From: Carcharhinus amblyrhynchos
Taxonomy: Eukaryota
Length of the DNA stretch: 64,000 bases
Reading direction: 5' to 3'
Assembly: GCA_965287045.1 (NCBI GenBank)
Contig: OZ336903.1
Location: forward strand, 496,001-560,000
Numbering within the stretch: position 1 is the first letter of the stretch; the number at the start of each line of letters is the position of its first letter. The position numbers and the translations under genes are program-made. The notes under the pieces were generated by a model. That model ran no database searches. It was not told the DNA's origin and saw only the letters and a list, made by a program, of their open reading frames with translations. Positions 11,069 to 61,166 of this stretch are shown here, one piece after another.

Positions 11069-11114
11069 ATGCTGCGCTCCTTCCTGACTCTAATTGCATT
11101 GCAGCTTCTCAACT
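11069..11114 (+). CDS. Copy A exon 1, signal peptide [15 protein letters not shown](C)
   Basis: ATG in ACGATG context, hydrophobic core, strong donor T|GTGAGT; identical in copy B. Confidence 0.82.
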
Positions 11115-59200: not shown

Positions 59201-61166
59201 TCTGCCGCCGTATCTGAGTTGGATTCAGTGGTAAATCTAATTTTCTTATTCACTTGCTGTTGTTTTAGGAGGCTAATAAACTGGAAATGCAACTTTGCTC
59301 AAAGTATATTGTGATAATTTTCGACAAGCTAAGTCAGCGATTTCAACATTCACTTCATAACTGCGAGCTGACTGGCGATTCAGTAGTAAGAAAAAAATAA
59401 TGAGATGAGATTACTGAGCAGAGGACATTGCATCGCAACATAACATTTGTTCTGCTTTCTTTCATAAGGCTTGTTCTTTCAAGCAACTGCACAGTCCAAA
59501 CAGTATGTTTAAGGTTTTATTCCGCGGACTCTCCGTGCTTTACTGTGTGAAGTGTTTGATAAAAGTAATGGGGCGCTTCTCCATCAGTTAACCAGCATTT
59601 TCAGTGGCATTCGGATTAATAAATACAATCAAAGAGGCACGTTGGGAACCGAGAGAAAATGAACCAACTGAACAACTTAAATGAAAAAAAAACTACTTGG
59701 CCTGTAAAAGGAGATGAAAGAACAGGTCTCGATCTGCCACAGAAAACGGCATGAGACACAGAGAACATGAAAACGTGGAATACTTTTGAGAAATAAAAAT
59801 AATTAGAAACTGGAAAAGAACACTGCATAGGAATATTAATTTAACACATTCTGGTAATATGCCGGTAGGAGATATAAGGCAATTGAGCAACAAACGTCAC
59901 AACGCAAATTACGCATATTTAGCAGAATACGTTATTAACACAACAAGATAATTATTTTCTTCACATTAATGAACATAATTAATGACATTATTCATTGTAA
60001 TTCATATTAATGCGTTAAAATGCATTATTCACAGACCTAGCACAACGCTGTGTGGCTGAAGCACCTATTTAAAAAAAAAGTCTGTTTTCTCTGTAAGCGG
60101 GTTCAGACAGAAAATATGCAAGGAAATATGAAGAGAAGCATGTGTGGACGGTCCTCGCCAAAATTCCTGCATAGTAAACGCTGTGAATTGGCTTCCACTC
60201 AAACTCATGTTCAGCAGGTTCTAACAGCGACTGCTCTAATTTGTACCAACACAAATCAATTAATCCGAACAGAGGTTTGACAGTAATATGTTGTCCATGC
60301 ACAACTGCCGCATTTCCATTCAATTCCGTGTTTAACTCTCAGCTACCGGCAAGTCTCGACCGAGATTAAAACATGCATTAATCAGATGTTCTACATTCTA
60401 AACGTATTTGAAAGGAAATAAGTCAGAAAGAAACAGGGGATCTAAATTATCCACCAACTGAAACGTACGTGACTTAAATTCCCAATTCCAATACGCACTT
60501 CATAGCAACTAAGGAAACATTTGAAAAGATTAGAGCTTTTCCCATAAGTGGAGCGGAGAATCCAAAACACTGCTAAACAAAAAACATAATTTTCCAGATT
60601 GAGATTTGACAGTCCATTTTGATTTCCGACTCCAATTTATTTATTCTGCACAAGAATCTCAGGTAGACGGCGATTAAATACAACTTCTGTTGGGCATTTG
60701 TGGGCTCAGAGCAATATTCGACCAATGTGTTAGGCCCCGAGGTCCAAAATGACTGCCGGGTGGAATAAAACCAATTCAGTCTAACCCCACTAGCCTGTTC
60801 TTGGCTCCTTTCTGCGTTACAATACTTCAAACGCATAAGCAAGTGTGTTTTCAATGGGCTGAGCGCTTCTTCATCCTCCAGCTTTTTAGACACTGAACTC
60901 GCACTCTCTCATTGTAGATTGATGTACATTAATATCCCATTACCTCCAGATGACACTTATTATTCAAATCATCAACTTTCCCTTACATCTGTCACCAATA
61001 TTTTTATTACGAAATCTCTCTCTCTCTCTCTATACATATATACACGTATAGACATGCTAAAATTTTATGTCAGTGAATTCTCAACAGACATCAGGATACT
61101 TTCAATCAATAATAACTCACAGTTGAGAAGCTGCAATGCAATTAGAGTCAGGAAGGAGCGCAGCAT
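38159..61166 (-). CDS. Gene copy B: paralogous CD163/WC1-family SRCR receptor, 16 coding exons, 964 aa
   Basis: Exons 61121-61166, 56605-56637, 55312-55629, 52620-52934, 51714-52028, 51087-51401, 49209-49523, 46968-47285, 46826-46882, 46420-46728, 46242-46280, 45939-46055, 43717-43824, 41418-41528, 40806-40937, 38159-38205. They total 2895 nt and I found no stop or frameshift. Confidence 0.88.
39204..39412 (+). mobile_element. HE1-like SINE, 3' truncated
   Basis: GGGCAGCACGGTGAGACAGTGGTTAGCAC head plus core. Confidence 0.82.
39600..40745 (+). mobile_element. Degenerate CR1-like LINE pieces including a 3' end
   Basis: [27 protein letters not shown] motif and ggctgaacggcct tail; the 3' part is mirrored at about 32010-32245. 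Confidence 0.65.
40806..40937 (-). CDS. Copy B cytoplasmic exon 3 [44 protein letters not shown]
   Basis: 132 nt, AG/GT. Confidence 0.85.
41418..41528 (-). CDS. Copy B cytoplasmic exon 2 [37 protein letters not shown]
   Basis: 111 nt, AG/GT. Confidence 0.85.
41945..42265 (-). mobile_element. HE1-like SINE, copy B counterpart
   Basis: Reverse complement of 30508-30837. Confidence 0.85.
43717..43824 (-). CDS. Copy B cytoplasmic exon 1 [36 protein letters not shown]
   Basis: 108 nt, AG/GT. Confidence 0.87.
44550..45650 (-). mobile_element. Mirror copy of the old CR1-like fragment
   Basis: Reverse complement of 25860-26965. Confidence 0.8.
45939..46055 (-). CDS. Copy B transmembrane exon ...[31 protein letters not shown]
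   Basis: 117 nt, AG/GT. Confidence 0.9.
46242..46280 (-). CDS. Copy B stalk exon
   Basis: 39 nt, identical to A. Confidence 0.82.
46420..46728 (-). CDS. Copy B SRCR7 exon
   Basis: 309 nt SRCR domain, AG/GT. Confidence 0.95.
46826..46882 (-). CDS. Copy B linker exon [19 protein letters not shown]
   Basis: 57 nt, AG/GT. Confidence 0.75.
46968..47285 (-). CDS. Copy B SRCR6 exon
   Basis: 318 nt SRCR domain, AG/GT. Confidence 0.95.
47946..48933 (+). mobile_element. Young 5'-truncated CR1/HER1-like LINE (RT C-terminus, 3' UTR, (TGTTCTA)n tail), in copy B only
   Basis: [18 protein letters not shown]...SKFADDTK...[14 protein letters not shown]...[14 protein letters not shown], one frameshift near 48635, microsatellite tail; absent from the copy A intron at about 23556-23586. 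Confidence 0.93.
49209..49523 (-). CDS. Copy B SRCR5 exon
   Basis: 315 nt SRCR domain, AG/GT. Confidence 0.95.
50405..50630 (+). mobile_element. V-SINE-like SINE, copy B counterpart
   Basis: CACGGTAGCACAATGGTTAGCACTGCTG head. Confidence 0.8.
51087..51401 (-). CDS. Copy B SRCR4 exon (6 Cys)
   Basis: 315 nt SRCR domain, AG/GT. Confidence 0.95.
51714..52028 (-). CDS. Copy B SRCR3 exon
   Basis: 315 nt SRCR domain, AG/GT. Confidence 0.95.
52620..52934 (-). CDS. Copy B SRCR2 exon
   Basis: 315 nt SRCR domain, AG/GT. Confidence 0.95.
55312..55629 (-). CDS. Copy B SRCR1 exon (6 Cys)
   Basis: [31 protein letters not shown]...[18 protein letters not shown]; 318 nt. Confidence 0.95.
56605..56637 (-). 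CDS. Copy B exon 2 (C)[10 protein letters not shown]
   Basis: 33 nt, AG/GT on the minus strand. Confidence 0.75.
61121..61166 (-). CDS. Copy B exon 1, signal peptide
   Basis: Reverse complement of the copy A exon 1, identical. Confidence 0.82.

Follow-up and report, generated by a model that had tools for sequence, protein, structure and literature searches.

An array of WC1/CD163c-alpha-type receptor genes with a diversifying distal SRCR domain in the shark Carcharhinus amblyrhynchos

Gene models and transcript forms

The window, that is the whole stretch of 64,000 nucleotides analyzed here, carries two receptor genes arranged tail to tail, gene A on the plus strand (from 11069) and gene B on the minus strand (from 61166) (Table 1). 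Each comprises 16 coding exons with AG/GT ends, open frames and one terminal stop. The products, 961 aa for gene A and 964 aa for gene B, are 89% identical and share one layout: a signal peptide, seven SRCR domains, a hinge, a stalk, a membrane span and a tail of 137 or 139 aa. In gene A, each of the seven SRCR exons clears the Pfam threshold for SRCR; a search of Rfam returned no matches. Domain 1 lacks Cys2 and Cys7 and thus has six cysteines, as does domain 4. In both genes, YEEI is found in tail exon 1 and YDDAE in tail exon 3. The sequence-only reading, which had proposed two complete 16-exon genes of this layout, a distal domain without Cys2/Cys7 and a set of membrane and tail motifs, is borne out on each of these points, gene limits included, although the cysteine pattern of domain 4 had gone unmentioned. 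The WC1 motifs it named (VLCLILGSLL, AVYEEL and YDDAE) are likewise present in bovine WC1 records.

A 15-exon model was dropped after a gap relative to other shark proteins had revealed a hinge exon of 57 nt, placed between domains 6 and 7. This exon is seen in all 23 paralogues described below, indicating that the count of 16 is correct. A 60-nt candidate exon (14468-14527) was dismissed because an RNA-type contig links exon 1 straight to exon 2. Similarly, an end of gene A tail exon 3 at 31910 was rejected in favor of 31955, the donor used in RNA-type contigs; its equivalent is lost in two paralogues.

The RNA-type contigs derive from four runs of two studies and two organisms, possibly of other species; the runs are presumed to be RNA. 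The contigs are mostly 85-95% alike, and a lack of contig cover does not count as evidence against an exon. Among the matches listed, at least 7 of the 15 junctions are supported, so that the expectation of finding the predicted junctions in transcripts holds for this share of them, in organisms that are possibly not this species. Contigs joining the stalk to tail exon 3, with the membrane exon skipped, reach depths of 1672 in X1 and 745 in X2. The deepest contigs of one of the organisms (organism A) omit both the membrane exon and the YEEI exon, pointing to an abundant secreted form. Membrane-less transcripts are also produced by WC1 itself (excerpt of PMC2681482). A pure co-receptor model does not require a secreted form.

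Table 1. Features of genes A and B, with positions in the window
Feature	Position	Strand	Evidence or remark
Gene A, duplication unit	8551..33128	+	80-88% identical, introns too, to 63674-37729 of the opposite strand
Gene A exon 1, start codon and signal peptide	11069..11114	+	RNA-type contig joins exon 2, loose end
Gene A exon 2, 11-codon spacer	15598..15630	+	gene model, RNA-type contig
Gene A SRCR domain 1, six cysteines, hypervariable, distal, a-like	16566..16880	+	Pfam, selection tests
Gene A SRCR domain 2, b/c clade	19219..19533	+	tree, Pfam
Gene A SRCR domain 3, b/c clade	20504..20818	+	tree, Pfam
Gene A SRCR domain 4, six cysteines, n-type clade	21130..21444	+	tree, Pfam
Gene A SRCR domain 5, d-type	22970..23284	+	tree, Pfam
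Gene A SRCR domain 6, groups with e	24210..24527	+	tree, Pfam
Gene A hinge exon, domains 6/7	24613..24669	+	predicted
Gene A SRCR domain 7, d'-type	24779..25087	+	tree, Pfam
Gene A Pro/Ser/Thr stalk exon	25227..25265	+	gene model, RNA-type contig
Gene A transmembrane exon	25454..25570	+	gene model, RNA-type contig
Gene A tail exon 1, YEEI	27710..27811	+	gene model, RNA-type contig, tail alignment
Gene A tail exon 2	31238..31348	+	gene model, RNA-type contig, tail alignment
Gene A tail exon 3, YDDAE	31824..31955	+	donor 31955 used in RNA-type contigs
Gene A last coding exon and stop	32644..32690	+	gene model, RNA-type contig
Gene B exon 1, signal peptide	61121..61166	-	gene model
Gene B exon 2, spacer	56605..56637	-	gene model
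Gene B SRCR domain 1, hypervariable, 78% identical to gene A domain 1	55312..55629	-	gene model, tree
Gene B SRCR domain 2	52620..52934	-	gene model
Gene B SRCR domain 3	51714..52028	-	gene model
Gene B SRCR domain 4	51087..51401	-	gene model
Gene B SRCR domain 5	49209..49523	-	gene model
Gene B SRCR domain 6	46968..47285	-	gene model
Gene B hinge exon	46826..46882	-	predicted, gap versus shark proteins
Gene B SRCR domain 7	46420..46728	-	gene model
Gene B stalk exon	46242..46280	-	gene model
Gene B transmembrane exon	45939..46055	-	gene model
Gene B tail exon 1, YEEI	43717..43824	-	gene model
Gene B tail exon 2	41418..41528	-	gene model
Gene B tail exon 3, YDDAE	40806..40937	-	gene model, motif
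Gene B last coding exon and stop	38159..38205	-	gene model

The array, its family and its age

Genes A and B are two of 23 receptor genes in an array of 1.9 Mb (C34:156k to 2,058k) that contains 36 distal domains, 23 membrane exons, 24 tail-1 exons, 23 n-type domains and 24 units of promoter plus signal exon. In the exons examined, 18 genes are free of stops and frameshifts and five are broken; several gene fragments also lie within the array, and the complete distal exons are open in 36 of 36 cases. Seven genes carry two or three tandem distal domains, with a spacer exon for each, and domain 2 is absent from four. YEEI is kept in all tail-1 exons except one, which reads YEKI. Tails are all of one type and the membrane span contains no basic residue. 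Array exons are mosaic between paralogues, indicative of exon exchange, and in each of the ten exon types compared other paralogues rank ahead of the A-B pairing, ties aside. What had been read as a pair of receptors thus consists of two array members that are not each other's nearest paralogue. The array is a young, lineage-specific expansion. In public annotation, shark relatives are named 'DMBT1-like' or 'M130-like', and neighboring genes are often fused.

Protocadherin-style alternative first exons were considered and rejected, since tandem domains are not separated by a signal exon in the DNA examined and the 24 promoter units match 24 gene starts. A TCF/SOX-type site occurs in all three promoters scanned; as these are 92-93% identical overall, we do not count it as evidence.

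In the tree, domains 2 and 3 fall within the b/c clade (support 100/99), b and c not being separated for either, while domain 6 groups with e (99/94) and domain 7 with d' (98/90). Domain 4 belongs to a clade (100/99) with bird, turtle, caecilian, gar and teleost domains at the same position, labelled n-type on the basis of position and cysteine pattern as given in an excerpt of PMC2906472, the trees being without mammalian SCART. This six-cysteine domain sits between domains 3 and 5 in all 23 genes. The tree left out mammalian DMBT1, CD5, CD6 and SSC4D and included fish and sauropsid DMBT1-like repeats; in it, none of the shark receptor domains was of the h-i-j-k types of CD163A, and the genome's own genes with DMBT1-like repeats (C1, C7 and C108) form separate groups. 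As is characteristic of the CD163 family, the products are type I membrane proteins with membrane-proximal e- and d'-type domains. Over 72 residues, the tail is collinear with its counterpart in camel WC1 (z 10.4, 0 of 500 shuffles), with z values of 4.6, 5.6 and 10.0 for bovine WC1, owl and turtle and of 0.8 for CD163A.

By tree and tail, the shark receptors classify as WC1/SCART-type members of the CD163 family and not as DMBT1 or CD163A, in agreement with the initial assignment. That assignment needs refinement: because the shark cassette holds an n-type domain that is absent from WC1, its closest match is the chicken WC1/CD163c-alpha hybrid rather than WC1. Domain 1, which had been equated with WC1 a1, resembles it in position, in loss of Cys2/Cys7 and in variable columns, but is unplaced in the tree and does not group with a1. 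Three alternative groupings all passed the AU test, the one with a1 at a p-AU of 0.26 and its two competitors at 0.36 and 0.13, and the best score was obtained with CD163A domain 7 for 35 of the 36 copies and with a1 for one. The cysteine loss and variable patches common to both domains may therefore be convergent. As tree and AU test do not tie domain 1 to WC1 'a', the shark receptors are not classed as WC1 orthologues.

The cassette and tail were found in sharks, skates, gar, teleosts, coelacanth, caecilian, turtles, birds and mammals, a spread that dates the receptor type to the jawed-vertebrate ancestor. As the array itself is young and lineage-specific, great age applies to the type of receptor and, probably, to its tendency to expand. 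The idea of a multigene WC1-type system in early jawed vertebrates accordingly survives for the receptor type, not for the present array. EMG1, GAPDH, TPI, FUOM and MRPL51 are markers that neighbor the mammalian CD163/WC1 or SCART1 loci. EMG1 and GAPDH lie on other, high-numbered contigs, away from the array, and TPI, FUOM and MRPL51 were not found in the genome search; among 99 flank ORFs examined, only a GPR139-like receptor and a reverse transcriptase were recognized. MHC linkage, as on chicken chromosome 16 (excerpt of PMC4988538), was rejected for the shark array, class I exons being located on another contig (C9). The published family survey (PMC2906472) extends back only to chicken and platypus. 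No description of these genes in cartilaginous fish was found in the literature searched, whose scope mostly excluded subscription journals.

Diversifying selection on domain 1

Pairwise dN/dS amounts to 1.20 for domain 1 and 0.33-0.59 for domains 2-7. Comparison of models M1a and M2a for domain 1 yielded a 2dL of 299, with an omega of about 7 at 14 of 104 codons; 2dL was 236 without the indel loop and 228 without the broken genes. For domains 2-7, 2dL ranged from 1.6 to 21, less than a tenth of the domain 1 statistic, domains 2-5 and 7 nonetheless giving p<0.01. These values come from a custom script that kept relative branch lengths fixed and used naive empirical Bayes, and site-model tests of this kind are inflated by exon exchange between paralogues.

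Variable sites were mapped with reference to the exposed cation/ligand face of SRCR domains described for SALSA (PMC7043408). Four of the six equivalent positions are among the 14 selected codons (p=0.003), and the 36 distal domains display 31 different six-residue combinations at this site, which is conserved in domains 5 and 7. Domain 1 varies in three patches, all of them located on one face; its framework and its buried structural site stay conserved, with the two structural aspartates present in 34 of the 36 copies. The same patches vary among paralogues of bamboo shark, skates, manta and sevengill shark, and, column by column, variability shows a correlation with that seen across 17 a1 domains of bovine/buffalo WC1 (Spearman 0.53). 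A structure prediction for domain 1 made without an alignment was discarded (pLDDT 40). Domain 1 is thus under strong diversifying selection, concentrated on the known SRCR ligand face, in keeping with the multigene, diversifying family suggested by the sequence-only reading.

Proposed function and comparison with known systems

With confidence that is evenly poised, we propose that genes A and B belong to a WC1/CD163c-alpha-type array and likely act as inherited co-receptors through which lymphocytes, most likely gamma-delta T cells, bind microbes. Each array gene combines its own promoter and signal exon with one to three variable distal domains, a conserved stem of the b/c-n-d-e-d' type and, after the membrane span, a four-exon tail with the tyrosine motifs of WC1. 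As the distal domain changes fast at its predicted binding face, the array is likely to constitute an inherited repertoire of microbe sensors. Each distal domain would bind a different set of microbial surface ligands; binding would cluster the receptor, and phosphorylation of the YEEI tyrosine would lower the activation threshold of the antigen receptor, as in bovine WC1, whose co-stimulation requires YEEL phosphorylation (excerpt of PMC2906472). Single cells may express subsets of the array genes, and duplication, inversion and exon exchange between neighbors would renew the repertoire by birth and death. Large WC1/CD163c arrays have been tied to species rich in gamma-delta T cells (excerpt of PMC2906472). 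In cod, a TCR gamma/delta cluster is marked by a gene known only as CD163-like (PMC9276791), and sharks have a Sox13-positive cluster, likely gamma-delta (PMC10529500).

More tentatively, the jawed-vertebrate ancestor may already have had gamma-delta T cells with a germline-encoded, variegated WC1-type array, of which sharks would keep a version larger than that of cattle, partly stacked and supplemented with secreted single-domain forms. If so, sharks would possess a second recognition repertoire beside their rearranging receptors. The cartilaginous-fish array dates the receptor design (cassette, hinge and four-exon tyrosine tail) to the jawed-vertebrate root, with the same distal face diversified in sharks and cattle through descent or convergence. 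For shark immunology, it offers a candidate gamma-delta T-cell surface marker and co-receptor, as well as one predicted SRCR binding site in 36 natural variants.

A smaller but real chance attaches to myeloid or epithelial pattern-recognition receptors of the same family and with the same diversified ligand face, partly secreted and without a tie to the T-cell receptor. The high-depth contigs skipping the membrane exon fit such receptors, as does the function of CD163A and DMBT1 on macrophages and at mucosae (excerpts of PMC2906472 and PMC2681482), and acidic motifs of the YDD type could function in uptake or in the docking of a kinase, whatever the leukocyte. WC1, however, yields membrane-less transcripts too, and the nearly invariant YEEI is common to the gamma-delta-associated WC1 and SCART genes but not to CD163A.

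We regard it as unlikely that the genes form a family resembling KIR/Ly49, carried by NK or innate lymphoid cells, in which the distal domains would track polymorphic self ligands (e.g. MHC class I-like) or pathogen decoys. Such a family would suit the strong diversifying selection, the birth and death of genes and the separate promoter of each, and WC1 expression has been likened to KIR/Ly49 variegation (PMC5949365). Moreover, the genome contains dozens of class I exons (82 matches) and CD6 binds a self protein through the same SRCR face. Yet there is no ITIM/ITAM pairing, given the single tail type and the membrane span without a basic residue, and the class I genes lie on a different contig.

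Even less credence is due to the array being a by-product of unstable duplication, with domain 1 varying through relaxed constraint and gene conversion. The broken genes, fragments and mosaic exons, and the small but significant tests in control domains, are what it would produce; the confinement of variation to three patches on one face with framework and structural site kept, the more than tenfold larger test statistic, the open state of every complete distal exon and the recurrence of the same patches in other cartilaginous fish are not. Lastly, a CD163A-like haemoglobin/haptoglobin scavenger or a DMBT1-like agglutinin, suggested by CD163 being the best PDB match and by the names in public records, is largely refuted by tree and tail, as h-i-j-k domains are absent, the tail is unlike that of CD163A, the DMBT1-like repeat genes group apart, and the proteins are membrane-anchored with seven different domain types instead of near-identical repeats.

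The co-receptor array proposed here can be set beside five known systems. With DMBT1/SALSA it shares the SRCR fold and the cation/ligand face (PMC7043408), but DMBT1/SALSA is secreted and has near-identical repeats with a conserved acidic site, whereas the shark products are membrane-anchored and hypervariable at that site in domain 1. CD163A has relatives of the b-c-d-e-d' domains, group B SRCR domains and a membrane span; the shark genes differ in lacking h-i-j-k, in not matching its YREM tail and in being multigene. CD163c-alpha and SCART1-2 (m-l-b-c-n-d-e-d') show the b-c-n-d-e-d' order, the six-cysteine n position and a YEDI-type motif resembling YEEI (excerpt of PMC2906472). In the shark, however, one to three six-cysteine distal domains stand at the position of m and l, the tail has four separate exons as opposed to two, one of which is shared with the membrane span, and the family is large instead of one or two genes.

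Bovine WC1, with 13 genes of the a-[b-c-d-e-d]-[b-c-d-e-d'] or a-b-c-d-e-d' type, has in common with the shark genes a six-cysteine distal domain, variable patches at the same columns, a gene array, membrane-less transcripts and the tail motifs YEE(I/L), SQLxYY-like and YDDAE in the same order. Both have a hinge after e, and the four shark tail exons after the membrane exon compare with 4-6 in WC1 (excerpt of PMC2681482). In contrast to WC1, the shark genes contain the extra n-type domain, have an unduplicated cassette and lack the last YDDV motif, and the larger shark array (23 genes with 36 distal domains) shows no gene-by-gene orthology. Closest are the chicken WC1/CD163c-alpha hybrids GgCD163_1 and _8 of Herzig et al. 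2010 (excerpt of PMC2906472). Like the shark genes, these are multigene and consist of a variable N-terminal domain, a c-n-d-e-d' cassette and a membrane span; their tail motif Y(Q/E)(D/C/E)(I/L) is common to the shark tails, and their owl, duck, turtle and caecilian relatives fall in the same n-type clade (100/99). The shark genes depart from them in the tandem distal domains of 7 of the 23 genes and the missing domain 2 of 4.

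Gene models and transcripts of the window

Motif scans of the window revealed seven SRCR exons on each strand, belonging to two genes, A and B, that lie tail to tail within an inverted duplication of ~25 kb (80-88% identical, introns included). With exons bounded by AG/GT, both genes could be modelled as open frames; an extra 57-nt hinge exon in the interval between domains 6 and 7 was revealed by aligning other shark proteins, and the end of tail exon 3 was taken from RNA-type contigs. Each finished model comprises 16 coding exons, the products being 961 and 964 aa (89% identity), and all seven SRCR domains of gene A score above the Pfam SRCR cut-off, bearing out the two complete 16-exon, seven-SRCR genes proposed by the sequence-only reading. 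The best named full-length relatives are from sevengill shark (60%) and catshark (57-58%), with skates at 54% and bovine WC1 at 41%, which marks the source as an elasmobranch and probably a shark.

A reverse-transcriptase fragment (Pfam RVT_1) occupies the gene B intron between domains 5 and 6 and is absent from gene A. Upstream of each gene, where the duplicated unit borders on unduplicated sequence, there is a 43-bp minisatellite, and a similar stretch occurs in genomic stretch L116. A TCF/SOX-type site 120 bases ahead of the start codon was present in all three promoters examined, a weak observation because identity among these promoters is 92-93% along their whole length.

Four runs from two studies and two organisms, guessed to be RNA, were compared over window positions 15400-33300; they are mostly 85-95% alike to the window and therefore probably derive from other species. 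Among the RNA-contig matches listed, 7 of 15 junctions were supported (signal-spacer, spacer-domain 1, domain 7-stalk, stalk-membrane and the three tail junctions). In organism A, the deepest contigs (runs X1 and X2) run from the stalk directly into tail exon 3, leaving out the membrane exon, the first tail exon with its YEEI motif and the second tail exon, and a loose end ahead of the stalk resembles the end of a domain 1. Together these suggest a short secreted form in that species, possibly an abundant one-domain product of a relative of genes A and B with domain 1 directly on the stalk.

Coordinates of the features discussed
Feature	Sequence	Position	Strand
Gene A, start	window	11069	+
Gene B, start	window	61166	-
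Gene A tail exon 3, end	window	31955	
Stalk to tail exon 3 joint	window	25265 to 31824	
Reverse-transcriptase fragment	window	47943-48674	+
43-bp minisatellite	window	7184-8001; 63674-64000	
TCF/SOX-type site	window	~10950	
Domain 1-like exons of the array	C34	158k to 2,052k	
Second array (L057-L059, L078-L080)	C34	8.52-8.80 Mb	
Third CD163-family locus (L061-L065)	C3	137.86-138.19 Mb	
Broken membrane-proximal exons (L053)	C56	1.133 Mb	
Broken membrane-proximal exons (L056)	C105	0.572 Mb	
MHC class I exon matches	C9	89.6-101.1 Mb	
GPR139-like genes/fragments	L087	4631-5533	
	L105	1163-2095	
	L120	2724-3667	
	L088	9860-10000	

An array of receptor genes

The sequence-only reading had proposed counting paralogues, and a genome search extended its pair to an array of 23 genes on contig C34, of which the window covers positions 496001-560000. 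At least 36 exons resembling domain 1, the distal SRCR domain, were found (75-100% identical; next best 60%), a lower bound as the best 150 of 423 candidates were scored. The array holds 23 membrane exons (2 elsewhere in the genome), 24 tail-1 exons (1 elsewhere), 23 domain-4 exons and 24 promoter plus signal-exon units. From the window and 52 array stretches we assembled 23 genes that have both an ectodomain and a membrane exon, besides one orphan distal domain and tail-only fragments. Five of these genes carry three distal domains, two carry two and 16 carry one; domain 2 is missing from four. A stop or frameshift occurs in 5/23, possibly including assembly errors; for most genes the analysed DNA began after exons 1-2, and in a few it stopped short of the last exon.

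The nearest paralogue differs exon by exon across the array, pointing to unequal crossing over or conversion. Distal domains share a mean identity of 79% within the genome, against maxima of 66-76% to 14 domains of other elasmobranchs, so within its own lineage the array has expanded or been homogenised. Sevengill shark and catsharks have several near-identical paralogues in public records; carps and characins have many. Single-exon GPR139-like GPCR genes and fragments lie beside and inside the array.

A second array on the same contig comprises ~7 related genes with seven exons of the n type, several six-cysteine N-terminal domains and a split domain; it shares with the main array the type of signal exon, the membrane span and tail exons 2-3, and no YEEI exon was found within the stretches examined there. 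A third CD163-family locus has four n-type exons and the domain order x-b-c-n-d-e-d', and may correspond to another mammalian locus; its examined stretches yielded no membrane exon or YEEI tail of the array's family. Broken copies of membrane-proximal exons occur on two other contigs, and 82 MHC class I exon matches form several clusters on a contig different from that of the array. Public models of relatives (proteins P0107, P0120, P0069, P0084, P0065) often fuse two adjacent genes under DMBT1-like or M130-like names, which hides the family in public annotation.

Family placement and selection on domain 1

The per-domain phylogeny called for by the sequence-only reading (120 SRCR domains; ultrafast bootstrap/SH-aLRT) placed the stem with WC1/CD163 groups. 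Domains 2 and 3 belong to the WC1/CD163A b/c group (100/99), b and c not being separated, and domain 6 splits off together with e domains (99/94). The placing of domains 5 and 7 among d and d' types is weakly supported; in a smaller tree domain 7 joins d' (98/90). Domain 4 belongs to an 11-member group (100/99) of same-position domains from skate, gar, tarpon, zebrafish, caecilian, turtle, duck and owl; its label n, the six-cysteine fifth domain of CD163c-alpha (PMC2906472), is inferred from position and cysteines, because the tree holds no mammalian SCART, DMBT1, CD5 or CD6 sequences.

The tail offers a second, independent line for the predicted placement. As the sequence-only reading had recognised, it is of WC1 type, being collinear with WC1 tails at YEEI, at a serine-rich stretch with two tyrosines at its end and at YDDAE (alignment z: camel 10.4, turtle 10.0, owl 5.6, bovine 4.6, zebrafish 4.5), against 0.8 for CD163A and 0.0-2.3 for four sauropsid repeat-type membrane proteins.

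The proposed equivalence of domain 1 to the WC1 a domain found no clear support. In both trees domain 1 groups with elasmobranch distal domains only; forced groupings with a1, the n group or sauropsid repeats were not rejected (p-AU 0.26, 0.36 and 0.13), and among 20 mammalian reference domains the best score went to CD163A domain 7 for 35 of 36 copies and to a1 for one. N-terminal domains with six cysteines are likewise present in tarpon, jay and mole, and with eight in zebrafish, caecilian, owl and duck. The likeness to a may reflect either common descent or convergence.

Pairwise dN/dS (exons with stops, frameshifts or partial length excluded) reaches 1.20 in domain 1, compared with 0.33-0.59 in domains 2-7. 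Our own codon site script (M1a versus M2a) gave 2dL 299 for domain 1, with omega 6.9 on 16% of sites (36 sequences); dropping the indel loop lowered 2dL to 236, and restricting the set to 27 sequences of unbroken genes lowered it to 228. Values for domains 2-7 (20.7, 15.4, 13.7, 11.6, 1.6 and 12.3, in order) indicate background signal in this test, probably from recombination. Variation falls in three patches, the last with insertions of 0-6 residues; per-column entropy correlates with that of 17 a1 domains from cattle and buffalo (Spearman 0.53). Indels in a1 also distinguish WC1 subtypes (PMC5949365).

The SALSA structure paper assigns six residues to the exposed cation/ligand sites and a further set to a buried one (PMC7043408). 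The way these residues are spaced agrees with the canonical motifs in shark domains 5 and 7, and they can be placed gap-free on gene A domain 1; the mapping rests on numbering and motif rather than on a structure. The 14 selected codons include four of the six equivalent positions (hypergeometric p=0.003), and a fifth is selected in both reduced runs. The six positions show 31 combinations across 36 distal domains, and the buried aspartates are retained in 34. We hold the family placement together with a diversified ligand face with high confidence.

Proposed role and known systems

Anatomy, copy number, stem and tail family, and selection on the ligand face are established here. WC1 domains bind Leptospira, one substitution can abolish binding, WC1 genes are expressed in subsets by individual cells, and co-stimulation depends on the YEEL tyrosine (PMC2906472, PMC5949365). 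The shark distal domains would similarly bind varied microbial ligands and the receptors would signal via YEEI, most likely on gamma-delta T cells, given the links of WC1, SCART2 and bovine CD163c-alpha to these cells (PMC2906472) and a CD163-like gene marking the gamma/delta cluster of cod (PMC9276791). We judge this reading as a whole to have an even chance. Appreciably less probable is a myeloid or secreted pattern receptor, with which the putative secreted form may be compared. An NK-type receptor for self is unlikely, and neutral turnover, set beside the selection on domain 1, very unlikely. A CD163A or DMBT1 role is the least probable of all.

The kind of receptor is already known; newly established are the gene count, the tandem distal domains and the selection result. 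Our searches of open-access literature found no description of a large selected array of such receptors in cartilaginous fish, and the available portions of PMC6238376, PMC13346766 and PMC12421772 contain nothing on the family. The shark layout matches the chicken WC1/CD163c-alpha hybrids of Herzig et al., in which a WC1-type first domain precedes a c-n-d-e-d' cassette (PMC2906472). The four tail exons and the hinge after e are shared with WC1 (PMC2681482), whereas CD163A and CD163c-alpha differ from the shark genes in tail-exon and hinge structure.
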